Of a stretch of DNA of 32,000 nucleotides, positions 1,521 through 30,577 are shown piece by piece (position 1 is the first letter of the stretch; every line of letters starts with the position of its first letter). The notes beneath the pieces are model-generated. The model saw only the letters and a list, made by a program, of their open reading frames with translations. It was not told where the DNA came from and ran no database searches. Both the position numbers and the translations under genes were made by a program. The DNA comes from Candidatus Saccharimonadota bacterium (GTDB lineage Bacteria; Patescibacteriota; Patescibacteriia; 2-12-FULL-60-25), in the NCBI GenBank assembly GCA_023898425.1, contig CP060222.1, positions 510,001-542,000 on the forward strand, written 5' to 3'.

Positions 1521-3329
1521 ATGTTAGACATCCGAAATATTGCGATTATCGCCCACGTTGACCACGGTAAAACAACCCTCGCCGACGCCCTCATGAAACA
1601 GTCAGATACTTTTAAAGACGCAGGTCTTGAAGGTGAGGCTATTCTTGATTCTAATGAACTCGAACGTGAGCGTGGTATTACCATTCTCGCAAAGAACATT
1701 GCCGTTATGTACAACGGCACAAAGATTAATATTGTTGACACTCCAGGTCACGCGGACTTTGGTGGTGAAGTAGAACGTATCATGAGCCTTGTAGACGGCG
1801 CTCTTTTGCTTGTTGATGCAAAAGAAGGTCCAATGCCTCAAACGCGCTTTGTATTAAAGAAGGCGATCGAAGCAGGTCATCGCATTATCGTTGTTATTAA
1901 CAAGATTGATAAACCAGAAGCTCGTCTTGATTGGGTACTTGATCAAACATTTGATCTTTTCGTTACCCTTGGCGCTTCTGACGCGCAAGCTGACTTCCCA
2001 GTTGTTTACGCATCCGCAAAAAACGGTAAAGCCGGTCTAGGCATGGTTCTTGATGAAATGACTGATATCAAACCTATTTTTGAAACGGTTGTAAAAGAAA
2101 TCCCTGCACCAGACGCAGACGAAAATGGCCCACTTCAAGTGTCCGTAGCGAATGTAAGCTACGACAACTATAAAGGTAAGATGGGTATTGGTCGTATTGT
2201 TCGTGGCGTTTTTCGTCCTGGTCCTGTTACTTGGATCAATCGCGCGGGTGTAAAAGCTCCTGCAAAAATCACCAACCTTTTTAGCTTTATGGGTCTTGGT
2301 AAAGTTGAAATCCAAGAAGCAAAGGCGGGGGACATTGTGTCATTTGCAGGTATTCCTGAACTTAATATCGGTGAGACTGTTGCCGATGTTGCGAACCCAG
2401 AAGCACTACCTGTTATTAAGATCGAAGAACCAACCGTCAAAATGACCTTTGGTGTAAATACTTCACCATTTGCTGGTCAAGAAGGTAAATTTACCACCTC
2501 ACGTAATATCAAAGATCGCTTAACTCGCGAGCTACAAAACGACGTTGCTTTAAGCGTTGATCCTGGTAACGGTGATGCGAGCTTTATTGTCTCCGGTCGT
2601 GGTGAGCTTCATCTCTCTATTTTGATCGAAAAAATGCGTCGCGAAGGCTTTGAGCTCCAGGTATCCCGTCCTCAAGTTATTTTTAAAGAAGAAGGCGGTC
2701 AAAAGCTCGAACCATTTGAAGAAGTTTCTATCGAGTGTCCAGAGGTTTACAGCGGTGCAGCCATCGAAAAGATGGGTCGTCGCAAAGGTGAAATGAAAGA
2801 CATGCGTGTTGAAAATGGTATTGCTTATCTCCAATTTGAAATCCCAACTCGTGGTCTTATTGGTTACCGTACCGAATTTATGATGGACACACGTGGACAA
2901 GGTATTATTAATACACTTTTCCTTGGCTACAAACCGTTTGTTGGTAGCATTGATGCTGCACCTCATGGCTCACTTATCTCTCATGAGACAGGCGAAACAA
3001 CGGCTTACGGACTTATCGCCGCTCAAGAGCGCGGTATCATGTTTGTAAAACCTGCCACAAAAGTCTACGAAGGTATGGTGGTTGGCCAAAATGCCAAAGC
3101 AGAAGACATTGCTGTAAACGTCTGTCGTCAAAAAGCCCTTACCAATATGCGTTCTGCAGGTTCTGGTGTTGCCGATGGTCTCAATGCTCCACGTGACATG
3201 AGTCTCGAAGAAGCACTTGAATACCTTGGTGAAGACGAACTCCTCGAAGTCACCCCAGAAAATCTTCGCATTCGTAAAACCTACTTAAAAGAATTTGAAC
3301 GCAAACGCGATCAACAATCTCGCGGTTAA
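1521..3329 (+). CDS. typA: translational GTPase TypA/BipA
   Basis: G1 motif AHVDHGKTTL, G3 motif DTPGHADFGGEV and G4 motif NKID are present, and the EF-G-like domain order matches BipA along the full length. I placed the start at Met15 of the track ORF because the upstream TTG is the -35 hexamer. Confidence 0.95.
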   Translation: MLDIRNIAIIAHVDHGKTTLADALMKQSDTFKDAGLEGEAILDSNELERERGITILAKNIAVMYNGTKINIVDTPGHADFGGEVERIMSLVDGALLLVDAKEGPMPQTRFVLKKAIEAGHRIIVVINKIDKPEARLDWVLDQTFDLFVTLGASDAQADFPVVYASAKNGKAGLGMVLDEMTDIKPIFETVVKEIPAPDADENGPLQVSVANVSYDNYKGKMGIGRIVRGVFRPGPVTWINRAGVKAPAKITNLFSFMGLGKVEIQEAKAGDIVSFAGIPELNIGETVADVANPEALPVIKIEEPTVKMTFGVNTSPFAGQEGKFTTSRNIKDRLTRELQNDVALSVDPGNGDASFIVSGRGELHLSILIEKMRREGFELQVSRPQVIFKEEGGQKLEPFEEVSIECPEVYSGAAIEKMGRRKGEMKDMRVENGIAYLQFEIPTRGLIGYRTEFMMDTRGQGIINTLFLGYKPFVGSIDAAPHGSLISHETGETTAYGLIAAQERGIMFVKPATKVYEGMVVGQNAKAEDIAVNVCRQKALTNMRSAGSGVADGLNAPRDMSLEEALEYLGEDELLEVTPENLRIRKTYLKEFERKRDQQSRG

Positions 3330-3337
3330 TCACCCAT

Positions 3338-3368
3338 AAAAAACCCTGTCTTTTGACAGGGTTTTTTA
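3338..3368 (+). terminator. intrinsic terminator after typA
   Basis: Stem aaaaccctgtc / gacagggtttt with a tttt loop, followed by a T run, 9 nt after the typA stop. Confidence 0.8.
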
Positions 3369-3537
3369 AATAGAAAATGATCAAAACTCTGGTATTATAA
3401 TCGAAAACTTGCGCGTTTTTTTACCATGTTCATGGTGTTGAAAGTTTTTCCACAGGCACACACTTTTTGCTTAAAAACTCAATAAATCGAAGGGTGCACA
3501 GCCTACCTCGCTATGTTATTCTTTTGAACGTTTCATT

Positions 3538-4125
3538 ATGTCTACAAGAAATGAAGTTGTTTTAGATATCGAGACTCGTAATACGTTTCAAGACGTAGGT
3601 GCTTATAATCCTTCCTTATTAAAAATATCCCTTATTGGGTGTTATTTTTACGAAACGGACACCTATGAGTCTTTCTTAGAGGAGGACTTACCAAAGCTTT
3701 GGCCAAGACTCGAACGCGCTGACCGCATTATTGGCTATAATCTCATAGGATTCGATTACCCCTGTATGCAGCAATATTACTCGGGAGACATCATGAAGCT
3801 ACCCACGGTTGATGTCTTGGTAGAAATCGAAAAGTCCTTAGGCTTTAGAGTAAAGCTCGATGATGTTGCACAAGCAACACTCGGAGTAGGGAAGTCAGGC
3901 CACGGTCTCATGGCCGTTGAATACTGGAAAAAAGGAGAGATAGACAAGCTCCGAGACTATTGTCTTCAAGATGTAAAAGTAACCAAGGATGTTTACGAAC
4001 ATGCCATGGAAAAAGGTTTTATCGCGGTAAATAACCGACAGGGACAAAGAATGGAAGTAAAACTCACCATCAAACCCGTTGAAGCTGTGCCAAGACAAAC
4101 CATCAATCTATCCCTTGGTCTCTAA
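3538..4125 (+). CDS. DEDD-family 3'-5' exonuclease (RNase H-like fold, YprB/PolB-exo-like)
   Basis: Exo I motif LDIET, Exo II motif YNLIGFDYPCM and Exo III motif YCLQD all occur in the right order and spacing. Confidence 0.6.
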   Translation: MSTRNEVVLDIETRNTFQDVGAYNPSLLKISLIGCYFYETDTYESFLEEDLPKLWPRLERADRIIGYNLIGFDYPCMQQYYSGDIMKLPTVDVLVEIEKSLGFRVKLDDVAQATLGVGKSGHGLMAVEYWKKGEIDKLRDYCLQDVKVTKDVYEHAMEKGFIAVNNRQGQRMEVKLTIKPVEAVPRQTINLSLGL

Positions 4126-4153
4126 GCCCCTACAAATGTTGTTCGAACTTCGA

Positions 4154-4162
4154 TTATCCACA
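4154..4162 (+). promoter_or_regulatory. perfect DnaA box (TTATCCACA) upstream of the nrd promoter
   Basis: Exact 9-mer consensus, flanked by the short inverted repeat cgat/atcg, and 17 bp upstream of NrdR box 1. Confidence 0.5.
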
Positions 4163-4178
4163 TCGTAAGATCGTTCGA

Positions 4179-4226
4179 CCACTAGATCTTGTGGTATAAT
4201 TCTGATTAAGCCACTAGATCTAGTGG
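4179..4226 (+). promoter_or_regulatory. tandem NrdR boxes overlapping an extended -10 promoter of the RNR operon
   Basis: Box 1 is CCACTAGATCTTGTGG (4179-4194). Box 2 is CCACTAGATCTAGTGG (4211-4226), a perfect 16-bp palindrome. The box starts are 32 bp apart, about 3 helical turns. TGgTATAAT (4192-4200) abuts box 1. Both boxes fit the NrdR consensus acaCwAtATaTwGtgt in the outer CAC/GTG arms. Confidence 0.75.
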
Positions 4227-4341
4227 TTGGGCGACCTTCACTCACACGCTAACTTCTGTGAATTCCGTCATTCTTGAGGCTTTTGCCTCATAAAGACGTC
4301 CTCACGGAGGGTGAAAAGGGCACCCGAACTTGATCATGCGA

Positions 4342-4371
4342 TTTTGCGCTTCGACGCAAAAGTCTTTTTTT
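4342..4371 (+). terminator. terminator-like hairpin plus T7 run in the RNR leader (candidate attenuator)
   Basis: Stem ttttgcg (4342-4348) pairs with cgcaaaa (4355-4361) around the loop cttcga. A T7 run at 4365-4371 follows, 12 nt before the ATG at 4384. Confidence 0.4.
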
Positions 4372-4383
4372 GCAACCCTTTTT

Positions 4384-4860
4384 ATGACACTTCCTCACAA
4401 TTCCACAGGCGAGGCTTTTGTTCCACGCCGTCGTCGTTTACAAGATGAGCGCAAAGCCATCACCCATAAGTTTCAAGTTGGCTCATGCGAAGGGTATGTT
4501 ACGGTTGGTCTTTACGAAGACGGTCAGCCTGGAGAAATCTTTATCAGACTCGCAAAAGAACGCGGCGCTATTGCCGGCATGGTTGACTCACTCGCTACCG
4601 CCATCTCTATCGGATTACAGTATGGCGTGCCCCTAAAAGTTCTGGTAAATAAATTTGCTCACGCAAAATACGAACCCTCTGGTCCTACACAAAATCCAAA
4701 TATTCCACATGCAGAGTCCATTGTTGATTATATCTTTCGTTGGCTTGCTCTGCGCTTTCTCACTCCAGAAGAACGCCAAACCATCGGCGTTGTAGGCGAA
4801 CGCAATCATCATCAGGTACCCGTTAATAATTCCAACCAGACCTTTCTGCAGGTAGAGTAA
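4384..4860 (+). CDS. stand-alone TSCPD-domain protein (resembles the C-terminal domain of class II RNR NrdJ)
   Basis: The stretch RRRRLQDERKAITHKFQVGSCEGYVTVGLYEDGQPGEIFIRLAKERGAIAGMVDSLATAISIGLQYGVPLKVLVNKF matches the pattern RPxxLxGxTxKxxTGxGxLYVT...G.....l..l.G of NrdJ C-termini. I chose the ATG at 4384 because 4336-4383 carries the hairpin plus T7 run. Starts at ATG 4336 or TTG 4330 remain possible. Confidence 0.7.
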   Translation: MTLPHNSTGEAFVPRRRRLQDERKAITHKFQVGSCEGYVTVGLYEDGQPGEIFIRLAKERGAIAGMVDSLATAISIGLQYGVPLKVLVNKFAHAKYEPSGPTQNPNIPHAESIVDYIFRWLALRFLTPEERQTIGVVGERNHHQVPVNNSNQTFLQVE

Positions 4861-4915
4861 CTTAATTCTACGATACCGTCCTTTGCCTATGAGCCCACTC
4901 TTTGGAGCTTGTCCG

Positions 4916-5851
4916 ATGCTCACGTATCGGCCTTTCTACCGCCCATTCGAATACCCCCAATACTTCGAGTTCTTTCAAAAACAAAATCAAGCCCACTGGC
5001 TACCTATTGAGGTGCCTATGGAGTCTGATATTTCAGATTTTCGTTTTAAAATGACAGACGAAGAACGCAATCTCGTTATCCAGATTTTACGTTTCTTTAC
5101 CCAAGGTGATCTTGAAGTAAACAATAACTACAACTCACATTTGATCCCAGCTTTTCCGAAGCCTGAAATCAAGATGATGCTCTCTGCCTTTGCCGCAATG
5201 GAAGGTGTGCACGTGTGGGCCTACTCGTATCTCAATGATTCGCTAGGATTACCAGAAAAAGAATACTCTGCATTTTTAGAATATGATTCTATGCGGGCAA
5301 AGTATGAATATATCCAAGGCTTTGACGTGGACAGTGTAGAAGATCTTGCTATGAATCTTGCTGTTTTTGGTGCCTTTATGGAGGGGGTCAGCCTTTTTTC
5401 TTCCTTTGCTATCCTCATGAACTTTCCTCGCTTGGGCAAAATGAAGGGCGTTGGACAAATCATTACCTGGAGCATTCGTGATGAAACGCTTCATAGCCAG
5501 GGCGTATGCCAACTCTTTCGTGATTTAGTCAACGAAAACAAACATATCTGGACGCAAGACTTTCGTGACAAACTCTATAAAGCCTGTGATGACATGGTAA
5601 AACTCGAAGATAACTTTATCGATACCTGCTTCTCACTTGGCTCGGTTCCAGGTCTTAAGCCTGAAGATGTAAAACAATATATCCGTTACACTGCCGACAA
5701 AAAACTTCATGACCTCGGTCTCGACAAGGTCTATCATGTCGAGAATCCGCTTCAATGGCTTGATGTGATGGTAAACGCCAAAGAACACGCAAACTTCTTC
5801 GAAAATCGTGCTACTGAATACGCCAAAGGCGCTGTGGTAGCTGACTGGTAA
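4916..5851 (+). CDS. nrdB: class I ribonucleotide reductase small subunit (R2)
   Basis: Metal ligands are recognisable: D in FFTQGDLEV, ExxH in AAMEGVH, E in FMEGVSLF and ExxH in RDETLHS. A Tyr sits at +7 from the first Glu (EGVHVWAY), the radical position. GGAG at 4904-4907 lies 8 nt before the ATG at 4916. Confidence 0.93.
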   Translation: MLTYRPFYRPFEYPQYFEFFQKQNQAHWLPIEVPMESDISDFRFKMTDEERNLVIQILRFFTQGDLEVNNNYNSHLIPAFPKPEIKMMLSAFAAMEGVHVWAYSYLNDSLGLPEKEYSAFLEYDSMRAKYEYIQGFDVDSVEDLAMNLAVFGAFMEGVSLFSSFAILMNFPRLGKMKGVGQIITWSIRDETLHSQGVCQLFRDLVNENKHIWTQDFRDKLYKACDDMVKLEDNFIDTCFSLGSVPGLKPEDVKQYIRYTADKKLHDLGLDKVYHVENPLQWLDVMVNAKEHANFFENRATEYAKGAVVADW

Positions 5852-5907
5852 ACAGACATAATAACTCGTACTTTCTCGCTCATTCTTTTCACCCTTACTT
5901 ATCCCTT

Positions 5908-7815
5908 ATGGCCACATACGCTTCTGTCATCGACGCTGTTTCTGCAAACGACCTTAATGCCGCTCGTGATATTTTACTTAGCGAAGTAAAAGAGACAACA
6001 AAAAATCGTAATAGCTGGGACTGCCCTCATTATAATACCGATCGCTCTATCCAAGAGGGTATTCAGGTTACTCATGAATTTGAGACGCTCGCAACATACT
6101 TTGGTCTCGAAAATCTTCGTGATCGTTATTTTTTGCGCGGTGCCGACGGTGAGATCTGTGAAGATATCCAAAAATTCTATACACGCGTTGCAACAGGCAT
6201 GTGTCGTGGTGATCGTGAGCTTGCTCAACGCCTCTATAATTACATGACTCGCTGCTGGTTTGTGCCGGCAACTCCCGTCATGATGAATATCGGCACAAGC
6301 AAAGGCCTCCCGATTTCTTGTTTCTTAAACACTGTTCCAGATACGCTCGAAGGAATCTTTGATATTTATCGCGAAAACGCCTTCTTATCAAAATACGGTG
6401 GAGGTATCGGTACTGACTGGTCACAGCTCCGTGGTCAGAACTCCCCGTTAAAGTCCTCAGGATTGCGCTCATCGGGCGTTATCCCATTTATGAAGATCAT
6501 GGACTCCGAAACGATTGCTATCAGCCGTAACGGGATTCGTCGTGGCGCAGCTGCTGCTTACCTCAGCATTGACCATCCAGATATCGAAGATTTCTTGGAG
6601 ATGCGCAAACCAACCGGTGGTGATATTGACCGTAAGTGCTTAAATTTGAATCATGGCATCACCGTCACGGATGAGTTCATGAAAGCCGTAGAGGAGGGGA
6701 GAGACTATGATTTGATTGATCCTCACTACAAAACGGTCGTCAAACAACTCAATGCACAAGAAATCTGGCGCAAAATCCTCACGATGCGCGCAGAAACAGG
6801 TGAGCCGTATATTATCTTTATCGATACGGTAAACAATGCTCGTCCGCAACATCACAAAGATCTTGGTCTTATGGTGCGTCAAAGTAATCTCTGTACCGAA
6901 ATCGTGCTTCCTACAGACGAGACACGTACCGCGGTTTGCTGCCTTGGTAATCTCAATATCGAAAAATGGGATGAATGGAACGAAGACATCGAGCAAATCA
7001 CTTACGACATCGTGACCGCGCTCGACAACAACCTCGAAGCCTTTATCGAGATGGCAGATCCTGTCGAATTTAAGAAAGCGATCAACTCAGTTAAGCACGA
7101 ACGCTCTATCGGCCTTGGCGCTATGGGCTACCATGGCTACCTCATGTCTAAGATGGTGCCATTTGAAAGCATGATGGCTCGTAATATTAACAAAGAAATC
7201 TTTACGAAGTTTGCTCAATACGCACGTGCTGCATCAGAGAGACTCGGCAAAGAGCGCGGACTCCCGCTTGATGGCGGCACACGTCGCAATAGCTATGTCA
7301 CCTCTATTCAACCAACAGCTTCAACGAGTTTTATCTGTAACGAAGCAACGCCCTCAATTGAGCCAATCTCAGGTAACGCCTTCTTACAAAAAACGCTCTC
7401 TGGTAGCTTCTTGTACAAAAACAAACATCTCGTACGCTTCTTAGAAGAGAAGGGGATGAATACCACCGAGATCTGGAAGCAAATCATCGCTGATAAAGGA
7501 AGCGTCGCCAATGTCGAAGGCCTCAATGACGAAGAACGCGCTGTCTTCCGCACCGCGTATGAGATGAATATGCGCGAAATCATCCAACAAGCCGCAGATC
7601 GTCAGCCGGCTATTGATCAAGCGCAGTCATTAAACGTCTTCTTTCCTACTCCTATTTCCGGTAAGTACTTGAACGACGTTCACATGCTCGCCTGGAAACT
7701 CGGCGTAAAATCGATGTACTACCTCCGCTCAGCCTCACCGATCCAAGCAGAACGCATTGACGGAAATTCTGTCAAAAGAGACGTCGCTAGTGAAGAATGT
7801 GCCGTTTGTCAGTAA
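5908..7815 (+). CDS. nrdA: class I ribonucleotide reductase large subunit (R1), without an ATP-cone
   Basis: Active-site motif SNLCTEI, the ISCFL cysteine, AVCCLGNLN, and a C-terminal CxxC pair (ECAVCQ). At 635 aa there is no N-terminal ATP-cone. Confidence 0.95.
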   Translation: MATYASVIDAVSANDLNAARDILLSEVKETTKNRNSWDCPHYNTDRSIQEGIQVTHEFETLATYFGLENLRDRYFLRGADGEICEDIQKFYTRVATGMCRGDRELAQRLYNYMTRCWFVPATPVMMNIGTSKGLPISCFLNTVPDTLEGIFDIYRENAFLSKYGGGIGTDWSQLRGQNSPLKSSGLRSSGVIPFMKIMDSETIAISRNGIRRGAAAAYLSIDHPDIEDFLEMRKPTGGDIDRKCLNLNHGITVTDEFMKAVEEGRDYDLIDPHYKTVVKQLNAQEIWRKILTMRAETGEPYIIFIDTVNNARPQHHKDLGLMVRQSNLCTEIVLPTDETRTAVCCLGNLNIEKWDEWNEDIEQITYDIVTALDNNLEAFIEMADPVEFKKAINSVKHERSIGLGAMGYHGYLMSKMVPFESMMARNINKEIFTKFAQYARAASERLGKERGLPLDGGTRRNSYVTSIQPTASTSFICNEATPSIEPISGNAFLQKTLSGSFLYKNKHLVRFLEEKGMNTTEIWKQIIADKGSVANVEGLNDEERAVFRTAYEMNMREIIQQAADRQPAIDQAQSLNVFFPTPISGKYLNDVHMLAWKLGVKSMYYLRSASPIQAERIDGNSVKRDVASEECAVCQ

Positions 7816-7820
7816 AATGA

Positions 7821-7856
7821 ATAAAACACCCGCAAAAGCGGGTGTATTATTTAATG
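7821..7856. terminator. hairpin terminator after nrdA (possibly bidirectional)
   Basis: Stem acacccgc (7826-7833) pairs with gcgggtgt (7838-7845) around the loop aaaa. There is an A-rich stretch 5' of it and a T-rich stretch 3' of it. Confidence 0.7.
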
Positions 7857-7889
7857 AAAGCATTAACCCAGAGTATGACAATCAAACAC

Positions 7890-7918
7890 TTGACATAATT
7901 AACAAGATCTGCTATTGT
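7890..7918 (+). promoter_or_regulatory. strong sigma70-type promoter with no ORF behind it
   Basis: TTGACA (7890-7895), a 17-nt spacer, then TGcTATTGT, an extended -10 with its hexamer at 7913-7918. Confidence 0.6.
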
Positions 7919-7924
7919 ACCGCC

Positions 7925-8317
7925 AGTCGAGCAAATAGCTCTTCTAAATTTATTTGGATATCGACAGACGTAATTAACCTGTTGGTAATCCCAGAGAGTT
8001 TCTGGGCATTGGCATGCCCTTACGTGATAACTTTCAGCGCAAGCTGGTTAGTAATTACGTACGAAGTACTAGTTTACTTCGGCATACTCTCGGGTACACG
8101 ATAGGCCAGAGGTGGGTGTTCACACTCCATCTGCTCGCCGAGGCGTGTACTGCCTCATTAAGACTAGGCCCAATCTCATTTCCAAATGGGAGCAAGCTGC
8201 ATCACCTGATTCGTAGGCCTGGAAAACCACGAGTACTGTGCGAGGTGCGTCTTAGTGATTACTTTCTCCCTGGATCTCCCCAGATTGCTTAAAACACAAT
8301 CTGGGGAGTTTTCTTTT
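7925..8317 (+). ncRNA. candidate structured non-coding RNA of about 390 nt, family not recognised
   Basis: The unit is delimited by the promoter at 7890-7918 and a strong terminator at 8276-8317. It has no ORF with an RBS. It contains many local hairpins, including a GNRA-capped one (cagc GCAA gctg, around 8033-8044) and mutually exclusive stems. By eye its 3' half is more GC-rich than other intergenic DNA in the window. Confidence 0.35.
8276..8317 (+). terminator. intrinsic terminator of the ncRNA candidate
   Basis: An 11-bp perfect stem, ctccccagatt (8276-8286) with aatctggggag (8298-8308), followed by ttttctttt. Confidence 0.8.
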
Positions 8318-8320
8318 CAT

Positions 8321-8358
8321 ACCCACACAAAGACATCTGCTTCGGTGGGTGTTTTTTT
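8321..8358 (+). repeat. terminator-like hairpin, copy 1 (attL-like hybrid)
   Basis: acccacacaaag-acatctg-cttcggtgggtg followed by T7. It is about 90% identical to copy 2 at 9036-9076. Its own two arms pair imperfectly. Confidence 0.6.
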
Positions 8359-8442
8359 ATTTTTTTGACGTGACATGTACCGCTTGATAAAAAGATGCGG
8401 CTAAACGCACTTTCCAACCCAAGAATGTGATTTGGAGACGGT

Positions 8443-9030
8443 ATGAATACGGCTATGGTACCAGGTTTGAATCTTTTGCTGCATTTCAAGCCAAGCGCTC
8501 CTCCTAAGATTGCGGTCATGGATGAAAAATTCATCCGCAAACATTTCTCTCACAAGGACCTACGTCAACGAAGACGTCTGGTGCTCGATGTACAGCGATT
8601 CAACGAGTATCGCCAAAAAAACCCCTCAACCAGAATCGAGCTCATTAGACTTGATCTAACGAGATGCGAATTAAGAGGGGCGAATCTACGAGGAGCCTCC
8701 TGCTGGAGAACGATCTTCGACAAGTCTGATTGTCGTGGCGTTGACTTTACGGGGGCGGACTTGGCTTATGCCAAATTCAAACAATGCGACTTGCAACATG
8801 CAACGTTTCGAGAAGCCGGTTTGACTCGTGCCGAATTTGACGAAGCCGACTTTCGAAAGGCTGTGCTCACAGGAGCGCTTGCTCATGGTGCGCGCTTTGA
8901 CGGTGCTGACCTTCGCGAGGCGGACATCAGTAAGCTAGATATCGACGCTGCGTCTTTTTGGAAGGCTCGTCTCAGGCCCGAACAGCAAGAGCATATCCTC
9001 TCACATTTCAAAAACTCCTTTCGGAGCTGA
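8443..9030 (+). CDS. pentapeptide-repeat protein
   Basis: Tandem A(D/N)LxX pentapeptides run through residues about 70-165 (CELRGANLRGASCWRTIFDKSDCRGVDFTGADLAYAKFKQCDLQHATFREAGLTRAEFDEADFRKAVLTGA...). GGAG at 8434-8437 lies 5 nt before the ATG. Confidence 0.85.
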   Translation: MNTAMVPGLNLLLHFKPSAPPKIAVMDEKFIRKHFSHKDLRQRRRLVLDVQRFNEYRQKNPSTRIELIRLDLTRCELRGANLRGASCWRTIFDKSDCRGVDFTGADLAYAKFKQCDLQHATFREAGLTRAEFDEADFRKAVLTGALAHGARFDGADLREADISKLDIDAASFWKARLRPEQQEHILSHFKNSFRS

Positions 9031-9035
9031 CCCAT

Positions 9036-9076
9036 CACCCACGCGAAGATATCTGCTTTGTGTGGGTGTTTTGTTT
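9036..9076 (+). repeat. terminator-like hairpin, copy 2 (attR-like hybrid); functional terminator of the pentapeptide-repeat gene
   Basis: cacccacgcgaag-atatctg-ctttgtgtgggtg followed by ttttgttt. As RNA it forms a 13-bp stem with two G-U pairs. Confidence 0.65.
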
Positions 9077-9077
9077 A

Positions 9078-9120
9078 AAAAAAGAAAAAAGGCCCCGGAG
9101 CAAGTAAAGCTCGACGGGGC
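9078..9120 (-). terminator. intrinsic terminator of the 122-aa gene (minus strand)
   Basis: Stem gccccggagc / gctc(ga)cggggc. An A-rich run on the plus strand at 9077-9090 reads as a T run after the stem on the minus strand. Confidence 0.7.
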
Positions 9121-9140
9121 AGACTCTATAACAAGTCCTG

Positions 9141-9509
9141 TTATTTTTTGCTCTCACGAGAGCGTAGAACAAAGAGCACTTCGCCTTCGGCGAGAAAGAA
9201 CCTCACCGCAAGAGTATGGGTTCTTGTGCTTACCATCAACAACCCTTCGGATATGTGGCTCACGCTTTTAAGCAGGTGCTGATGAATTGCCGCCCAAGCT
9301 TCTTTGTATTCTGGATTTTCTACCAGTTTAAATGAAGCGACGCCTTGGCTTGTTGATGACCTGCCAAATCGACCCTTGATCATCTCTTCGAGTCTTTCCT
9401 CGGCAACCGCTGCGATAACGCTGAGATACAACGTTTCGTGATCACCCCCAATTGATTTCCTCTGTTTTTGATTACCAGAGGCAATACCCGATGTCGTTGG
9501 TACGTGCAT
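9141..9509 (-). CDS. hypothetical protein (122 aa)
   Basis: It forms a complete expression unit: the promoter at 9543-9571, the RBS AAGGAtGGtGG directly upstream of the ATG at 9509, and the terminator at 9078-9120. I recognised no motif. Confidence 0.6.
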   Translation of the reverse strand: MHVPTTSGIASGNQKQRKSIGGDHETLYLSVIAAVAEERLEEMIKGRFGRSSTSQGVASFKLVENPEYKEAWAAIHQHLLKSVSHISEGLLMVSTRTHTLAVRFFLAEGEVLFVLRSRESKK

Positions 9510-9542
9510 TCCACCATCCTTCCCTTGGTAAAAAGGACGCCG

Positions 9543-9571
9543 ACTATAGCATGTCTATAATGTATTGTCAA
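9543..9571 (-). promoter_or_regulatory. sigma70-type promoter for the 122-aa gene
   Basis: On the minus strand: TTGACA (9571-9566), a 17-nt spacer, then TATAGT (9548-9543). Confidence 0.65.
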
Positions 9572-9604
9572 AAACACCACCTTAGCGGTGGTGTTTTTGT
9601 TTTT
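9570..9604. terminator. bidirectional hairpin terminator whose T run overlaps the -35 of the next promoter
   Basis: Stem caccacc (9575-9581) pairs with ggtggtg (9587-9593) around the loop ttagc, with A5 on the 5' side and T5gT5 on the 3' side. On the minus strand it follows the stop of the acidic-protein gene at 9605. Confidence 0.75.
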
Positions 9605-9928
9605 CTACATTTCGTCTTCGATAACGAAGTCTTCACGTTCTGTTACCGTGTCGATCTCTTTTTCTAGACGATCAAGCTCGGCGAGCTCATCGAGCTCTTC
9701 GATACCCGTTTCATCGTCCTCGTCTTCTTCGTCGTCATCAGAAGCAGCAGCTGTCGCTACAGCGTCTGTGTCGAGGCCGTCGTCTTCTTCTTCCTCTTCT
9801 TCTTTGTCGCTGTCACCTTCGAGGTGCATGCCAAGCTCAGCGAGCTTTGCGTCGTCCGGGTCTTCGTCGAGACCGGCCATGTCGCGGTCCCAGCTAGAAG
9901 GACCTACGTTAAGGGGGAGTGCTGTCAT
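9605..9928 (-). CDS. hyperacidic small protein (107 aa, 46 Asp+Glu)
   Basis: I took the start at the internal Met80 of the track ORF, because the upstream part of that ORF would overlap the rmuC 5' region. Sequence: MTALPLNVGPSSWDRDMAGLDEDPDD...EEEEEEDD...DDDEEDEDDE...DFVIEDEM. I recognised no domain. Confidence 0.55.
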   Translation of the reverse strand: MTALPLNVGPSSWDRDMAGLDEDPDDAKLAELGMHLEGDSDKEEEEEEDDGLDTDAVATAAASDDDEEDEDDETGIEELDELAELDRLEKEIDTVTEREDFVIEDEM

Positions 9929-10001
9929 ATGAATGTTCACACATATAACGTATGTGCCTTTGCTTTGCAAGAGGGCGCCAGATTTGATACCTTTAGCCTC
10001 T

Positions 10002-11054
10002 ATGAGCACGACGGACATTTTGTTGGTTTTAGGTGGGATTTTGCTACTCGGCGTAGCGGTAGCTATTGTAGCGATTTTTCGGCAATTAAAGAGCCAGCAA
10101 CCTGCTATTGATCCGCAATTACTGCAGTTTATGCATGAGCGTTTAGAGTCGCTTGATCGCGACATGCGTCAAACACTTACAGAATCAAACCGCACACAAC
10201 AAACAGCAAGCCACCACATGACAGGAGCAGTGCGTGATGTCACCGAACGCCTCGTTAAAATCGAAGAAACCAATAAACAGGTACTCGAATTCTCAGGTCA
10301 GCTAGACCAATTACAAAGAATTCTTACCAATCCAAAACAACGTGGTATTTTGGGGGAGTATTATCTTGAGACACTCTTACGTACGATCTTTGCTCCAGAT
10401 CAGTATCAAATGCAATATAAATTTAAAGACGGAGAAATTGTTGATGCAGCCGTATTCGTCAAAGACAAAATCGTCCCTATTGATTCTAAATTTAGCTTAG
10501 AAAACTACAATCGCCTTGTAGAGGCTCAAGATCCTGCGCAAAGAGCAACCTTCGAGAAGGCTTTTGTAAATGATCTTAAGAATCGTATCAAAGAGACCGC
10601 AAAGTATATCCGCCCAGGCGAAGGTACCATGGATTTTGCATTTATGTTTATTCCGCACGAGGCTGTTTACTATGATTTGTTAGTTAATAAGATTGGTGAA
10701 GGAGGGGAGGATGCCGAAAGTCTTATTCAACGCGCAGCTTCTAAATGGCATGTGATTATCGTCTCACCAACGAGTTTTACAGCCTATCTACAAACCGTTC
10801 TACAAGGCTTACGCGCCATGCATATCGAAGAACAAGCAAAAGAGATCCGTAAACGCGTAGAAGACCTCCAGAGACATATGACGGCTTACGAGCAACACTT
10901 CACCAATCTAGGTAAACATCTTGGTACAGCCGTAGGTCAATATAACTTTGCGGGCAAAGAATTCGTAAAAATTGATAAAGATGTTCTTAAAATCACCGGC
11001 CAAGGTATTGGATTTGAACCTATCTCTATTGATAAGCCTGGCGAGGACGTATAG
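10002..11054 (+). CDS. rmuC: DNA recombination protein RmuC
   Basis: N-terminal TM helix, then a coiled-coil, then an RmuC nuclease-like core (RGILGEYYLETLL...VDAAVFVKDKIVPIDSKF...FMFIPHEAVY). I chose the start at Met24 of the track ORF. Confidence 0.88.
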   Translation: MSTTDILLVLGGILLLGVAVAIVAIFRQLKSQQPAIDPQLLQFMHERLESLDRDMRQTLTESNRTQQTASHHMTGAVRDVTERLVKIEETNKQVLEFSGQLDQLQRILTNPKQRGILGEYYLETLLRTIFAPDQYQMQYKFKDGEIVDAAVFVKDKIVPIDSKFSLENYNRLVEAQDPAQRATFEKAFVNDLKNRIKETAKYIRPGEGTMDFAFMFIPHEAVYYDLLVNKIGEGGEDAESLIQRAASKWHVIIVSPTSFTAYLQTVLQGLRAMHIEEQAKEIRKRVEDLQRHMTAYEQHFTNLGKHLGTAVGQYNFAGKEFVKIDKDVLKITGQGIGFEPISIDKPGEDV

Positions 11055-11056
11055 CC

Positions 11057-11673
11057 ATGAAACTGCTCCTAAAACGCCTAGCCCTCTATAGCGCCGTAAC
11101 CATCGGTGCGGGATTACTTTGTGTTGCAGGAGTTATCGGTTATGTTCAGCTATCCCATATCCAGCAAATACATACGGATATTGATACGCTTTCACCTGCG
11201 CCATATGCCATTATTCTTGGTGCTAGCGTTAAAAGTAATGGCACGCCTTCTGATGCCCTGTATGACCGTATCTACCTCGGTAGTGAGCTCATCAAAGCAG
11301 GCAAGGTAGAGACCCTTCTTATGACGGGTGATGGCGGTGCCTACCATTTAAACGAAGTAGCTGCCATGAAGCGTGTCGCGATGGAGCTAGGCGTACCGAG
11401 AAAGATATTATTGTTGATGGACAAGGCTATCGCACCTACGAAAGCTGCAAGCGCGCGAATCAAATCTATGACATCAAAAAGCGATTGTCGTAACACAGCG
11501 CTTTCACTTGGCTCGCTCTCTTTATCTCTGTGATTTCTTTTCTATTGACGTTCAGGGACTTAGCGCTGATAGACAGAGCTATCAAAGAAACCTCTTTTTA
11601 TAAGCAGAGACTTGCTCTCGAGTGCTAAGGCTTGGTGGGATACGCGGATTCAGGCTCCAATGCGCCGGTGTAA
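11057..11673 (+). pseudogene. sanA: SanA/DUF218 family protein, disrupted by at least 3 single-base frameshifts
   Basis: The N-terminal 115 aa are in frame (ILGASV...LLMTGDGG...NEVAAMKRVAMELGVP). The continuation EKDIIVDGQGYRTYESCKRANQIYDIKK / AIVVTQRFHLARSLYLCDFF...QRNLF / ISRDLLSSAKAWWD is read only after adding one base near 11397, in the A5 run at 11476-11480 and in the T5 run at 11595-11599. It aligns with E. coli SanA (IIITQRFHCERALFIAL). The 3' end is uncertain. Confidence 0.8.
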
Positions 11674-11700
11674 AAAACACACGCAAGTAGCGTGTGTTTT
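11672..11700. terminator. bidirectional hairpin terminator between the convergent sanA and mscL genes
   Basis: Stem cacacgc (11678-11684) pairs with gcgtgtg (11690-11696) around the loop aagta, with A6 on the 5' side and T4 on the 3' side. Confidence 0.7.
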
Positions 11701-12092
11701 ACTAAGATTTCTTTTATCCAATCGCTCGAGATGAAGTTTTTTAAAGACAAAATAGACAACAAAAGCAATAATAACAAAGTCTATGGCGTTAACCGCAAAG
11801 TTACCAAGCATAATTGAACCAATCTTAAAGGATTTTAACCCTTGTGTAGAGCCAAAATCATTCCAATCGCTGGTTGAATAATATCTTGCACAAGCGAGGT
11901 CACAAGTTTGTTTACAGCACCACCCAAGACAAAGGCAATCGCGAGACCAATAATACCTTGTTCACGAATAAACGTCGCAAATTCGAGCATGGATTCTTTT
12001 AATTTCTTTTTTACATCGAGTCGTGGAGCAGGGGAGATGACGGTCGCATCAACTGGCCCTACAACCTTTGGGGATTCTTGCATGTTTTCCAT
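11698..12092 (-). pseudogene. mscL: large-conductance mechanosensitive channel MscL, frameshifted
   Basis: MLEFATFIREQGIIGLAIAFVLGGAVNKLVTSLVQDIIQPAIGMIL matches MscL TM1. The ORF stops at 11835, but the -1 frame continues as GSTQGLKSFKIGSIMLGNFAVNAIDFVIIAFVVYFVFKKL, which is MscL TM2. One base is missing near 11851-11853. The 3' end is uncertain. Confidence 0.75.
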
Positions 12093-12100
12093 ATGACAGG

Positions 12101-12129
12101 ATTATTAAGAAAATACGTAAAAGTTGCAA
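12101..12129 (-). promoter_or_regulatory. promoter for mscL giving a leaderless or near-leaderless mRNA
   Basis: On the minus strand: TTGCAA (12129-12124), a 16-17 nt spacer, then TAATAAT (12107-12101). The ATG at 12092 is 8 nt downstream and has no Shine-Dalgarno sequence. Confidence 0.45.
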
Positions 12130-12173
12130 GGCAAGACGAAAAAGAGATTTGCTCTATACTCTGCTCAACAACT

Positions 12174-12896
12174 ATGTCAGCTATTATATTACAAGATTTA
12201 GCAAAAATCTATGCTACGGGTACACAAGCTCTCAAGAGCATTAATCTCAAGATTGAAGATGGCGATTTTTTGCCTTATTAGGCGCGAATGGCGCTGGTAA
12301 AACAACCATTATTGGTATTTTGACGAGTATCGTTAATAAGACAGGGGCAAGGTAACAGTTTTAGGCCATGATCTTGATAAAGATGTCGACGGCTTAAAGT
12401 CACAAATCGGTGTTGTGCCACAAGAATTCAATTTTAATATTTTTGAAAAGGTTGAGGATATTATTGTTGATCAAGCAGGATTCTATGGAGTGCCGAAAAG
12501 ATCGCCCTTGAGAGAGCAGGGGAGCTTATGAAGGCGCTTGGACTTTGGGACAAGCGACATTCTCCTGCTCGTACCCTTTCGGGAGGAATGAAGCGCCGTT
12601 TGATGGTAGCGCGAGCTCTGGTGCATAAGCCTAAGATTTTATTATTAGATGAACCGACCGCTGGAGTCGATGTTGAACTCCGTTTAGAGATGTGGGACTA
12701 CCTCAAAGAGCTAAATGCCAGCGGAACAACAATTGTACTCACTACCCATTATCTTGAAGAAGTAGAAAGACTCTGTAAGAACGTCGCTATCATGAAGAAA
12801 GGGGAGATCGTTCATCGCTCATCTGTACAAAGTATTATCGAAAAATATCAAAGCGTTGAGAAGGCTTACCTCGCCATTACAAACGAAACTCTATGA
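12174..12896 (+). pseudogene. ABC transporter ATP-binding protein (ABC-2 type), split by 3 single-base frameshifts
   Basis: The pieces read MSAIILQDLAKIY...DGDF / (F)ALLGANGAGKTTIIGILTS...TG / GKVTVLGHD...FYGVPK / KIALERAGELMKALGLW...LSGGMKRRL...ILLLDEPTAGVD. Walker A, signature and Walker B motifs are all present. Each junction is repaired by adding one base: the T6 run at 12266-12271, the G4 run at 12344-12347 and the A4 run at 12496-12499. Confidence 0.85.
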
Positions 12897-13662
12897 TCAA
12901 AACTCAACTGATTGCCATTCAAACAATTTTACGAAGAGAAATTATTCGTCTCTTTCGTATTTGGCCGCAAACATTTTTACCACCGGTAATTACACAAGGT
13001 CTTTACTTTTTGATCTTCGGTACATTTATCGGATCGCAAATTAGACCGATTAACGGTGTATCCTACATGGCGTATATTGTGCCCGGAATCATTATGATGT
13101 CGATGATCACGGCTAGTTATATGAATGTTGTCTTCTCCTTTTTGGAGCGAAGTTTCAACGTCACATCGAAGAACTCCTTGTCGCACCTGTTTCGTATTAC
13201 ACCATTCTATCTGGCTATGTTTTAGGAGGAGTGATCCGCGCATTCATTACTGGATCAATGGTCTTTATTGTTTCATTTATTTTTATCAGACCTACGATTG
13301 AACATCCGTTCATTGTCTTATTGTTCGGACTTCTTACGGCGATTGTTTTTGCCCTTGGAGGATTCTTAAATGCGCTCTATGCCAAGACCTTTGACGATGC
13401 CAATATCTTTACCACATTTGTACTCACGCCATTAACATACCTCGGAGGCGTCTTCTATTCACTAGACATGCTTCCACCGTTCTTTAAGACACTGTCGTAC
13501 GGCAATCCTATCGTCTATATGGTGGATGGATTCAGATATGGCTTCTATGGCTTTAGTCAGGCGAACCCAGTAAATGGTATTATATTCTTAATTGTCGTTA
13601 TCGGCCTCTTAGCAGGTACTAACCTCTACTTACTAAAGAAGGGGACGGGAATACGATCATAA
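12893..13662 (+). pseudogene. ABC-2 family transporter permease, one frameshift
   Basis: The ATG at 12893 overlaps the ATPase stop codon (ATGA). Two ORFs (12893-13225 and 13231-13662) join into one protein (..NVVFSFFGAKFQRHIEELLVAPVSYYTILSGYVLGGVIRAFITG..) when one T is added to the T5 run at 13139-13143. Confidence 0.8.
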
Positions 13663-13674
13663 TCAATTATTAAA

Positions 13675-13703
13675 GCCCTCGACAAAATCTCGAGGGCTTT
13701 TTG
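13675..13703 (+). terminator. intrinsic terminator after the ABC transporter genes
   Basis: Stem gccctcga (13675-13682) pairs with tcgagggc (13690-13697) and is followed by ttttt. Confidence 0.8.
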
Positions 13704-14007
13704 TATTTAAATACGTATTTTATACTGCTTAAAAATAATAATAAATTAGACATTCTAAAGGCGTGTTGAGCTGAGAGAATAGAGCTGCGCCATGGATTTA
13801 TGACAAGCAAGTGTTTTTAACATCGGTAGAAACTAATAGAATCTGATAAGAAAATTAGCTAGGGAATCGTGTTTTAAAACCATAGCTATGCGTCGCACAA
13901 TATATCTTATACGACATAAGGGGTGGGATTTAAGCCAATAAGCCTTTAAAAATGCCTTTTCCTGATATTCGACCCAGACAAGTATTTTTACGAGCCGCTA
14001 GGATGCC

Positions 14008-14226
14008 CTAGGCTGTTTTTGCAGGTCTCCTAGTACCTTGGGCTTTAGACCCTTTGGTAGCCTGGGATGCCTTAGAGGCTCTGAGACGATCCCAGCGTAG
14101 CTGAACCAGCTCGGAGAAGTGTAAGGAGGTCTTTTTAGGGCCTAGCTTCTCTTTGAGTTGTTTAGAGGTTTTTTTACCTCCTTTACTACCTAATAACGCG
14201 GCAGCTTTTCGTATCTCTGTATCCAT
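14008..14226 (-). CDS. small lysine/arginine-rich protein (72 aa), KGG-like motif
   Basis: MDTEIRKAAALLGSKGGKKTSKQLKEKLGPKK...LVQLRWDRLRASKASQ. It resembles the small basic GGKK-containing proteins common on mobile DNA. It looks more GC-rich than the AT-rich flanks (by eye). Confidence 0.45.
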   Translation of the reverse strand: MDTEIRKAAALLGSKGGKKTSKQLKEKLGPKKTSLHFSELVQLRWDRLRASKASQATKGSKAQGTRRPAKTA

Positions 14227-14239
14227 GTCTTTATCATAC

Positions 14240-14259
14240 TATACGAAGCGCTTCGTATA
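14240..14259. promoter_or_regulatory. perfect 20-bp palindrome (candidate operator or 5'-UTR hairpin) upstream of the small basic protein gene
   Basis: TATACGAAGC|GCTTCGTATA, 13 nt upstream of the ATG at 14226. A TATAAT lies further upstream on the minus strand, in the 14270s. Confidence 0.4.
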
Positions 14260-14290
14260 CAAGGGTAAAACCAGATTATATCTTAAAATG

Positions 14291-14299
14291 TTATCCACA
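14291..14299 (+). promoter_or_regulatory. isolated perfect DnaA box (TTATCCACA)
   Basis: Exact 9-mer consensus in intergenic DNA. No other boxes cluster nearby. Confidence 0.3.
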
Positions 14300-14350
14300 A
14301 TAGTATTTTAAGTGATATTTCTGCTACTGATGTAAAAATATTTGCTCTAC

Positions 14351-14381
14351 AAAAAGAGGGGCCCTTTTATATAGCCCCCCT
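14351..14381 (-). terminator. intrinsic terminator at the end of the mreB...ftsQ cluster (minus strand)
   Basis: Stem agaggggc (14355-14362) pairs with gcccccct (14374-14381) with one mismatch. A5 on the plus strand reads as a T5 run after the stem on the minus strand. Confidence 0.55.
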
Positions 14382-14514
14382 ACTCTCTCCCACTACCCCA
14401 CTCCTCTACTTGTGTAATTTATTATTAATTTTATTCTTTCACATAGACGCGTCCCGGTACGCGTACATCGATATAATCGTAAAGCTTTTTCTCGCCTTCA
14501 TCTGTTTTTTTAAA

Positions 14515-15288
14515 TTATTGATACGTCTTTACCTGCATATCTATGGAGGCTGTGATATCCATAATGACTTCTTCGCCATTTTGCGCGAGCACCTCTAACT
14601 GCGTGCTTGATACTGTGGGCGGTGTAAACTCACGAAATTCCATGCCTGCTTTGCGTAAACTATCGTGAAGCTCAATCCATTCTTTTACTTCTCGTACATC
14701 ACCTGTGGTAAAACCCTGTGAAATACCTTCGTCGAGATTGCGTTTGATAATAGGCGCATCATTTGCGTTGGCTGCACGATGCCCAAGGAGTCTTGCTTGT
14801 GCATCTTTTTTTTCTGTTTCATTAAGTTCTGAAGTAACAATACCGTGCAAATCTACCCAGGCGTACTGTTGTCGTGAATGAAAGATAATGCGCTTCGCTC
14901 GTTCTTCTACAGTGATATCGATAGACTGACCAAAGTGTTTTTTTACCGTTACATTGGCCGCAAAGAGTCGTTCTCGTAATACCGTCTCAAGTGCCTTCTC
15001 ATCGAGAAACCACGAATGTCGCTTTGGCCAAGGTCGCCATTGCTGGCGATCATCAAGAATACGAAATACTTCTTTTGTTACGTCAGTTTCATCAAGCGCC
15101 TGTAGGCCTGTCGCACGAACCTCGTTAATCTGTAACGCGTCAGACATCAAGATGACGTATGACCACCCGATGACTGCAATAATGCCAAACAACCCAAAAA
15201 CCGTATCGCGACGCGAAAAACTTCGTGAACGCAAAAAATCATTAAGTTCACTATTTCGATATCGAACCGATCTTCGTGGTATATCCAT
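14515..15288 (-). CDS. ftsQ: cell division protein FtsQ/DivIB-like (POTRA domain)
   Basis: N-terminal cytoplasmic tail, one TM helix (VFGLFGIIAVIGWSYVILM), and a POTRA-like LQINEVRATGLQALDETDV. It lies directly downstream of ddl, which is the classic gene order. Confidence 0.75.
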   Translation of the reverse strand: MDIPRRSVRYRNSELNDFLRSRSFSRRDTVFGLFGIIAVIGWSYVILMSDALQINEVRATGLQALDETDVTKEVFRILDDRQQWRPWPKRHSWFLDEKALETVLRERLFAANVTVKKHFGQSIDITVEERAKRIIFHSRQQYAWVDLHGIVTSELNETEKKDAQARLLGHRAANANDAPIIKRNLDEGISQGFTTGDVREVKEWIELHDSLRKAGMEFREFTPPTVSSTQLEVLAQNGEEVIMDITASIDMQVKTYQ

Positions 15289-29456: not shown

Positions 29457-29475
29457 TAGGCGTCAATGACGCCTA
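29457..29475. other. 19-bp perfect inverted repeat overlapping the tgt stop codon
   Basis: TAGGCGTCA-A-TGACGCCTA. There is no clear U tract on either strand. Confidence 0.4.
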
Positions 29476-30577
29476 TTTTCTTAACTCTTCCATCAAGCGC
29501 AAATAAAACCTTAGATTCATCATCGTTGCTAAGCGTTGACCAAGCATTTCGTCGACCGTAAACAAGTGACGTAAATACCCCATTGTATAGCGAGAGAGCT
29601 CTTCGTCGACCGGTGTATGAATATCGTCTTTTTCTACGAGTGGCTGTTTTGAATCCTTCCATTTGGCATTATGGATATTGGCGACTTCGTAAAAATCTCG
29701 CTGAGTAAGATCTGTACTCTTCTTTAGATAGATCGATCCATGTCTAGCATTACGCGTTGGGAGCACACAATCAAACATATCAATACCTCGCGCTGTGTAT
29801 CCAACGATCTCATGTGGTTGCGCACCACCCATAAAGTAACGTGGCTTATCCTTTGGCAAGATTTCATCAAGAGCTTCTAGAACTTTACATGCTTCTTCGA
29901 ATGGCTCCCCAACAGAAAGACCGCCAATAGCATATCCATCAAACCCAATCTCCATCAACTCTTTGGCACTTCTGATACGTAAATCAATATCTGTGCCACC
30001 CTGAATAATACCAAAAAGCTTAGCACCTGGATTTAATGAGCCTTCGCGCGTTTTTTTCGAATTGTTCTTTTGAACGTTTTGCCCAACGCGTGGTCAGCTC
30101 TAATGCTTCGATAAGTTTTTCGCGTGTTGCAGGTAACTCCGTGCAAACATCTAGCACCATCACGATATCACTACCGATGGTACGCTGAATATCCATACAG
30201 AGCTCAGGCGTGAGCATCATCTTGGCGCCATCAATATGCGATTGAAACTTTACACCTTCTTCAGTGAGCTTACGAAGACCTTTTAAACTAAAGACCTGAA
30301 AGCCACCAGAATCGGTTAAGAGCGCTCCGTTCCAGTTCATAAAGCTATGCAGCCCTCCCATCTCCTTCATGATCTCCATGCCCGGTCGTAGCCACAAATG
30401 GTAGGTATTAGAAAGAAGGATAGGTGAGCCAAGTCGTTCAATATCAAAAGATGAAAGTGTTTTTACCGCGCCCTTGGTGGCGATAGGCATGAAAAACGGC
30501 GTCGCTAAATCTGCATGCGGGACTTTTTAGCATGCCCGTTCTCCCCTGTTTGGTTCGTCCAAATAATTCAAAACTCA
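29473..30577 (-). pseudogene. tgt: queuine tRNA-ribosyltransferase, two frameshifts
   Basis: There are three in-order pieces. The first is MSFELFGRTKQGRTGMLK. The second is PHADLATPFFMPIATKGAVK...LTDSGGFQVFSL...EQFEK. The third is EGSLNPGAKLFGIIQGGTDIDLR...GYAIGGLSVGE...PRYFMGGAQP...DCVLPTRNARHG. The junctions fall at the T5 run at 30524-30528 (one base too many) and the T7 run at 30051-30057 (one base too few). Confidence 0.85.

Follow-up and report, generated by a model that had tools for sequence, protein, structure and literature searches.

How did a single pentapeptide-repeat protein (PRP) gene come to stand between two hairpins whose arms match each other across the copies better than within a copy? 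The gene (8443-9030, + strand, 195 aa) lies in a 32-kb stretch of a Candidatus Saccharimonadota chromosome (contig CP060222.1, positions 510,001 to 542,000), referred to here as the window and providing all coordinates for which no other sequence is named. A sequence-only reading of this DNA had proposed that the PRP gene is the cargo of a mini-cassette, inserted when two perfect hairpins recombined inside their shared loop. We favour a different history, to which we assign a probability of roughly 0.55. According to this reading, the upstream hairpin H1 and the downstream hairpin H2 both descend from one Rho-independent terminator and have since diverged. Duplication would have placed the copies where units with promoters of their own adjoin in a hyperplastic spacer, and there they would serve as short homologies for the gain and loss of whole units.

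H1 reads ACCCACACAAAG-ACATCTG-CTTCGGTGGGTG (8321-8351) and runs into the tract T7AT7; H2 reads ACCCACGCGAAG-ATATCTG-CTTTGTGTGGGTG (9037-9068) and is followed by T4GT3. They are direct repeats with a spacing of 716 nt, as the sequence-only reading had recognised, but their identity over the hairpin and the start of the T-tract is ~86% (31 of 36 aligned positions) and not the ~90% first estimated. The window has two occurrences of a 22-nt core pattern that none of 100 shuffles produced. The arm relations described earlier also hold up. The left arm of H1 (8321-8332) is complementary to the right arm of H2 (9056-9067) at all 12 positions, a perfect match confined to the majority haplotype, and the left arm of H2, with the reverse complement CTTCGCGTGGGT, matches the right arm of H1 (CTTCG-GTGGGT, one base short) at 11 of 12 positions with one gap. 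Folding agrees that pairing within a copy is weaker: H2 forms 13 pairs, two of them G-U (-20.8 kcal/mol, z = -6.1), and the stem of H1 is bulged and mismatched (-12.4 kcal/mol, z = -3.4).

Both hairpins have the anatomy of intrinsic terminators, and termination is predicted at each. H2 with its T-tract (9036-9076, + strand) lies 6 nt past the stop codon of the PRP gene, of which it is the predicted terminator, and is the top-ranked terminator-like site in the terminator scan. H1 with its T-tract (8321-8366, + strand) follows a candidate RNA unit. Every copy of the hairpin has a T-tract directly 3' and stands at the 3' end of a unit. A covariance model of the hairpin, R1, which was built from six hairpins and searched against 178 kb of this and related genomes, scores H1 at 63.9 bits and H2 at 62.6 bits.

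Unit turnover is seen within the species. In two independent samples, L006 and L007, the single H1 of the window is replaced by an extra ~450-bp non-coding unit, arranged in the order hairpin H1', promoter segment, RNA unit 2, terminator and hairpin H1''. The promoter segment follows H1' directly (983-1050 in L006, ~70 nt) and is 89-96% identical to window 7846-7914. RNA unit 2 (~340 nt; 1055-1398 in L006, 61-416 in L007) is strongly structured (z = -9.6) and has its homologue in the unit found in the outgroup lineages L045 and L046 (~7010-7400), with 72% identity over the first 160 nt; the long hairpin at its 5' end is conserved between L006 and L045, where two of its pairs are compensatory and three changes are one-sided. 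Because RNA unit 2 has this outgroup homologue, the window type is most simply read as a deletion, and the three-unit arrangement is probably the older. The deletion probably took place between two direct copies of the hairpin. The H1 of the window matches H1' through CTTCGG and H1'' from GGGTG into the flank, and looks like a chimera of the two, with one informative site on each side.

The position of this junction bears on the most direct alternative, namely that H1 and H2 are attL/attR-like products of site-specific recombination within the 7-nt loop, between a chromosomal hairpin and a circular cassette of ~0.7 kb, catalysed by a recombinase encoded elsewhere. With their 12-13-bp arms and 7-nt centre, the hairpins share the geometry of tyrosine-recombinase core sites, and the three hairpin copies that bound three units in L006 also count in favour of this account. 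A crossover in the loop would be expected to leave the junctions TTTCTTTTCATACCCACACAAAGA[CT]ATCTGCTTTGTGTGGGTGTTTTGTTTAAAAAAAG at the empty site and GAGCTGACCCATCACCCACGCGAAGA[CT]ATCTGCTTCGGTGGGTGTTTTTTTATTTTTTTGACG on the circle. For the neighbouring unit, however, the crossover falls in the right arm and outside the loop, as judged from few informative sites. The loops of H1 and H2 are moreover unequal (ACATCTG versus ATATCTG), and that of the outgroup hairpin in L045 has another length.

Under the reading that we favour, the repeated hairpin (~31-40 bp) and the promoter segment (~70 bp) would act as short direct homologies, on which host recombination or replication slippage would delete or add whole units and leave one chimeric hairpin behind. 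The ancestor of the species would have acquired the PRP unit by the same route, or through microhomology-based joining at the terminator, and the unit would have been fixed since. The gain or loss of a unit at the hairpins is seen for RNA unit 2; for the PRP unit we infer it, as we do the recombination mechanism in general. Recombination as the route of PRP entry is taken over from the neighbouring unit because the searches found neither a donor nor a second hairpin locus.

Comparison with related lineages places the PRP unit among several alternative contents of one spacer. The spacer begins after the gene for the large subunit of ribonucleotide reductase (5908-7815), and the PRP gene is missing here in lineages in which the reductase protein is 97, 96, 94, 89, 83 and 82% identical. 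The site is empty in L026-L031 (96%), where a single terminator leads to the convergent terminator, and likewise in L032 (94%), L033 (89%) and L051-L053 (82%). L045 and L046 (97%; 84% at the nucleotide level) have a promoter and a non-coding unit with a single H-type hairpin and lack the PRP gene, and L049 (5986-7285; 83%) has a TrmB-family gene together with ~560 bp of GC-rich non-coding DNA that matches nothing in Rfam and resembles none of the other units. Since the flank past H2 is orthologous to the flank past T0, the reductase terminator, in the sister species, 7846-9068 can be delimited as an island and the spacer as a hot spot. The PRP unit is thus an insertion relative to the other species, which upholds the earlier proposal of an inserted hairpin-promoter-gene unit, and an empty sister-species site is also what the attL/attR account predicts. 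Among ~30 contigs of the source species no empty site was found, and the closest outgroup, L045, does not carry the reconstructed chromosomal hairpin, designated hairpin A in the sequence-only reading.

The edges of the island raise the possibility that the hairpins were passive. T0 (7826-7845), a two-way terminator of sequence ACACCCGC-AAAA-GCGGGTGT, forms the left edge, with orthologous hairpins past the same stop codon in L030, L032, L033 and L045, and H2 forms the right edge. The RNA units and later the PRP unit could have arrived by illegitimate joins at the terminator, through microhomology or template switching, or once the terminator had been locally duplicated in tandem. The repeats would then have no further role in rearrangement, and the difference between L006 and the window would reflect one slippage event. 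The sequences at the joins are indeed slight: the island is bounded on both sides by a mere GGGTGT, and the L045 insertion by an 11-nt repeat, GGGTGTTTTTG, common to T0 and the L045 hairpin. The terminators of these genomes also have a common style, ACACCC...GGGTGTTTT, of which the hairpin is best seen as an extreme member, since R1 weakly matches other terminators, and the PRP unit is both fixed and old. This account nonetheless fits poorly with the similarity of H1 and H2, which have loop and inner stem in common, agree at 31 of 36 positions and belong to a group scoring 62-65 bits, as against 21-30 bits for other terminators. It also leaves aside the fact that the polymorphic unit has an H hairpin at both ends and that its promoter segment is duplicated too, which means that the repeats coincide with rearrangement end-points more than once. 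We therefore regard passive hairpins as unlikely.

The cross-complementary arms, which first suggested a recombination product, appear to have a simpler origin. The outgroup L045 has a single hairpin with bulged arms of the H1 type, ACCCACACGA / TTCGGTGGGTG (CACCCAC-A-CGA...TCG-GTGGGTG), in which A7 is bulged, position 9 is G and position 4 is C; like H1, it is without one right-arm base. By this comparison H2 is the derived copy, in which the bulged A7 changed to G and came to pair with an inserted T, strengthening the stem from -12 to -21 kcal/mol. At position 9 of the H1 left arm and position 4 of the H2 right arm, the majority haplotype has A9/T4, L047 has A9/C4 and L006 has G9/T4. The match between these two arms accordingly drops to 11 of 12 in L047 (an A.C mismatch) and to 11 Watson-Crick pairs plus one G-T in L006. 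The two changes involved, G9>A in H1-left and C4>T in H2-right, are both CpG transitions, and the 12/12 match depends on both. Between the window and L047 (window 3000-12800), transitions are 3.4 times commoner at CpG than elsewhere (4.8% versus 1.4%). Because a CpG in the left arm pairs with any CpG in the right arm, such mutations hit complementary positions by construction. The arm pattern would then post-date the duplication, with the A-to-G change and the inserted T in H2 followed by two independent CpG transitions, and the cross-arm complementarity would be a mild coincidence of point mutations and no evidence of a recombination product. CpG is not depleted in the window as a whole (odds ratio 1.16).

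These arm states bear on the attL/attR account. In its favour stand the 12/12 match of H1-left with H2-right, the 11/12 match with one gap of H2-left with H1-right and, for the inferred ancestral states, the exact complementarity of H1'-left and the H2 right arm of L047. Against it, the single outgroup hairpin is bulged and is not the perfect hairpin A that the recombination of two perfect hairpins would require, and that part of the sequence-only reading finds no support. The arm states are polymorphic across strains, no PRP-less allele occurs among ~30 contigs of the species, and the age of the PRP unit equals that of the strain split. A recombinase was already reported as absent from the window, and we found no match to a recombinase family among the scanned ORFs (open reading frames) of at least 110 aa in the 32 kb, several of which have no Pfam match at all; nor are attC boxes present in 8201-9200. 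No further copy of the hairpin turned up in the window, at related loci or in three sequence collections, which did not return the source locus either. On balance we judge site-specific recombination in the loop to be improbable. As a specific candidate, a dif/Xer site was set aside, since the arms are unlike the dif consensus (an informal comparison) and the L045 loop differs in length.

A third interpretation, offered as an alternative in the sequence-only reading, is that H1-left pairs with H2-right in a functional, long-range RNA helix of 12 bp, which closes a read-through transcript and is kept by selection. For a hypothetical 8316-9078 transcript, the minimum free energy fold does use this helix and gains 7.2 kcal/mol over the fold with two local hairpins, and the haplotypes read G-U, A-U and A.C at one pair, a pattern expected along a compensatory path. 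However, a strong terminator (8276-8317, -21.6 kcal/mol) immediately precedes H1, the promoter-like site of the PRP gene follows only downstream of H1, and either arm can fold locally once transcribed. The A.C mismatch of L047 breaks the helix in its middle, both changes are CpG transitions, the commonest kind of change between strains, and in L006 an extra unit with a further terminator separates H1' from the PRP gene. A selected helix is consequently very improbable.

Several observations nonetheless sit uneasily with terminator duplication and repeat-mediated unit turnover. Firstly, 31-40 bp at ~86% identity is short for RecA-type recombination. Secondly, the inferred ancestral state G9/C4 and the derived state A9/T4 both keep H1-left and H2-right complementary at 12 of 12 positions. 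For a given pair of mutations, we roughly estimate from the CpG rates that the chance of cross-complementarity is ~0.5-2%, rising to ~5-10% when all five hairpin polymorphisms are counted, which is a mild surprise under pure neutrality. Finally, no second locus of the hairpin was found in searches covering the window and ~178 kb of related DNA, nor was any donor of the PRP gene.

A further reading would account for the double change. The hairpin could be the core site of an unrecognised trans-acting recombination system that moves promoter-bearing cassettes into and out of Patescibacteria terminators. Because excision by such a system must rebuild a working terminator, selection would keep the outer arms complementary, and the 12/12 match would persist through both substitutions. 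We hold this to be quite improbable. The sequence-only reading had suggested looking for other copies of the hairpin beside single accessory genes. R1 scores 55-65 bits at this locus only, followed by a sister-species terminator at 30 bits and copies of T0 at 21-26 bits (21-22 bits, a weak match, for T0 itself), and neither the 32-kb window nor the ~178 kb of related DNA holds a further copy. Scans with the hairpin pattern gave seven single matches in GTDB representatives, 11 in JGI metagenome contigs and one (L054) in IMG/VR; on inspection none of the 18 GTDB and JGI matches resembles the hairpin, in collections that did not return the source locus. Across the six hairpins, 96% of cells are paired, with no significant covariation.

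What the PRP gene itself encodes gives little indication of its source. The protein matches the Pfam pentapeptide-repeat model PF00805 (E = 1.8e-24), and generic Pfam repeat models are the only ones that it passes. Against NCBIfam it stays under the cut-off for every named family, with Qnr as the best match at 57.6 bits versus a cut-off of 240, and it does not qualify as a Qnr/MfpA-type protein. PADLOC, a defence scan, gave no match for the protein. Protein searches returned matches from the same species and then a next-best match of 44% identity over 57% of the query, and the gene is an orphan confined to the source species; searches of viral contigs found no relatives and identified no donor. 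Relative to L047 it is 96.4% identical at the nucleotide level, a divergence (3.6%) equal to that of the flanking core genes. The codon differences comprise 13 synonymous and six non-synonymous changes, and the gene is under purifying selection. Its GC content is 0.47-0.54 compared with 0.43-0.48 nearby, a gap too small to be used as evidence of foreign composition.

The island as a whole (7846-9068), which is absent from sister species, comprises a non-coding unit and the PRP unit, each ended by an H hairpin. The units have a common layout, in which an AT-rich tract with a promoter is followed by cargo and then a terminator, the cargo being either a structured RNA or the PRP gene. The first unit opens with an AT-rich tract (7846-7925, + strand) that contains a sigma-70-like promoter, TTGACA-17-TATTGT (7890-7918). 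This is followed by candidate structured non-coding RNA 1 (7926-8317, + strand; ~390 nt), which has its own terminator (stem 8276-8308 and T-tract) and a minimum free energy of -141.5 kcal/mol (z = -7.2 versus shuffles). It contains no plausible ORF, no homologue was found outside the species, and it has the look of a structured RNA gene that is unannotated and restricted to this species. No unit has an Rfam match, at gathering thresholds or at relaxed E-values. The possibility that the non-coding units are decayed TrmB or PRP genes was rejected, as tblastn found nothing and no ORF is common to L006 and L045. A 14-mer taken from RNA unit 2 was too short a pattern and found only chance matches in a scan of viral sequences. 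The promoter-like site of the PRP gene, TTGACG-17-TGnTAAAAA (8365-8393, + strand), was read by eye and is putative; it is weak, with the last T of the -10 element absent, and the consensus scan did not list it.

Beyond H2, the terminator of a convergent gene, GGCCCCGGAGC...GCTCGACGGGGC (9085-9120, - strand; -23.3 kcal/mol), is kept in the sister species and marks the ancestral right flank. The gene that it serves (9141-9509, - strand) encodes a 122-aa protein with no family match in Pfam, NCBIfam or PADLOC. This protein is 24% identical to its counterpart in L033 and has no detectable similarity to those of L045, L030 or L032, while the reductase next door is 89-97% identical; the gene appears to evolve extremely fast. 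Further along the same strand, a 107-aa protein consisting largely of Asp/Glu runs is encoded at 9605-9928, with sister-species matches of 72-79% identity in local BLASTP alignments. A longer mechanical ORF (9605-10165) that contains it overlaps the start of RmuC on the opposite strand.

Contig JAGQLA010000014 of the metagenome-assembled genome GCA_020429715.1 matches the window at 99.4% identity or more, and identical PRP, reductase or 122-aa proteins occur in ~30 contigs from many metagenomes, all of which have the PRP unit and both hairpins. The other genes of the window are of housekeeping type (RmuC, Ddl, Alr, SerRS, LysRS-type, GreA, PBP2, MreBC and an AddA-like helicase), and no tRNA genes were found in the region. 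Relative to L001, 103 of the 107 differences, including all 14 gap positions, fall at 11000-14000, where the genes for DUF218, MscL and an ABC transporter are broken into fragments. The TGT gene is likewise in two pieces (29473-30490). These broken genes could be assembly-error frameshifts or genuine pseudogenes. An AT-rich spacer of ~850 bp (13700-14515) corresponds to only 56 bp in sister L026 (12634-12690) and may be a second plastic spacer; the L026 segment holds a terminator, ACACCCACGA-GCT-TCGTGGGTGT, with a stem nearly that of the H hairpin (30 bits with R1).

If our preferred reading of duplicated terminators is true, duplicated terminator/promoter cassettes mark the ends of gene-sized gain and loss in the reduced chromosome of an uncultured member of the Patescibacteria. 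They would offer orphan genes and new RNA genes a simple route of arrival in a form ready for expression, with no need of a dedicated recombinase. Such a route adds to the picture of genome plasticity and opens no new field. The most promising by-product is the RNAs themselves: two or three strongly structured, unannotated RNAs of ~350-400 nt lie at this locus and are worth a study of their own. More generally, cross-complementary arms of duplicated palindromes can stem from CpG transitions, and calling them att sites needs an outgroup.

Of the known systems with a comparable architecture, integron cassettes resemble the PRP unit in combining a single gene with a structured, imperfect palindrome, in having direct-repeat sites at their boundaries and in lacking an internal recombinase. 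The hairpin here is 31-32 bp long, whereas attC sites measure 55-141 bp. No RYYYAAC/GTTRRRY core-box pair turned up when both strands of 8201-9200 were searched with a regular expression, in agreement with the sequence-only reading, in which the R and L boxes of integrons had likewise gone unseen. Furthermore, the units carry promoter-like sites of their own, a T-tract follows each site, the scanned ORFs of the window include no match to an integrase family, and there is no attI. The site occurs in only two copies in 32 kb. An integron cassette was rejected on size, core boxes, integrase and the promoterless nature of such cassettes.

Minimal mobile elements of Neisseria, following the definition quoted in PMC3787668, offer a parallel in that the position between conserved genes is fixed and the cargo varies, here from empty to RNA, RNA with PRP, or TrmB with non-coding DNA. 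Those elements are exchanged when, following transformation, the genes on either side recombine homologously; the units of this spacer add internal boundary repeats. Phage morons (PMC3594210) similarly consist of a promoter, one gene and a factor-independent terminator placed between genes that are adjacent in relatives. The present locus differs from them in lying in a chromosome without prophage context, with no relatives found in scans of viral contigs, and a moron denotes an architecture and not a mechanism.

The closest match is provided by the PeSL (promoter-early stem-loop) cassettes of T4-type phages, in which a stem-loop and an early promoter flank ORFans in hyperplastic regions. Recombination between cassettes removes or adds a unit there, a single chimeric cassette stays behind, and mini-circles have been detected (Arbiol et al. 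2010, PMC2839356; Comeau et al. 2014, PMC4122927). Here, too, ORFan units are separated by a repeated terminator stem-loop, accompanied by an AT-rich tract and a sigma-70-like promoter, and each unit has its own promoter and terminator. T0 and H1' each precede the same ~70-nt AT-rich segment with a -35 element, and H1 precedes the weaker TTGACG-17-TAAAAA. Related genomes differ by a whole unit, and the shorter one keeps what looks like a chimeric hairpin, with one informative site per side. The differences are those of setting and scale. PeSLs number ~50 per phage genome, whereas the hairpin occurs in two to three copies at one locus of a bacterial chromosome with housekeeping neighbours. The repeat here is mainly the hairpin, with differing promoters downstream, and non-coding RNAs make up two of the three cargoes; mini-circles are known for the phages, and the present locus is read from assembled sequence alone. 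Overall, repeat-mediated shuffling of units is known from T4-type phages, and our reading would extend it to a Patescibacteria chromosome with RNA genes among the cargo.

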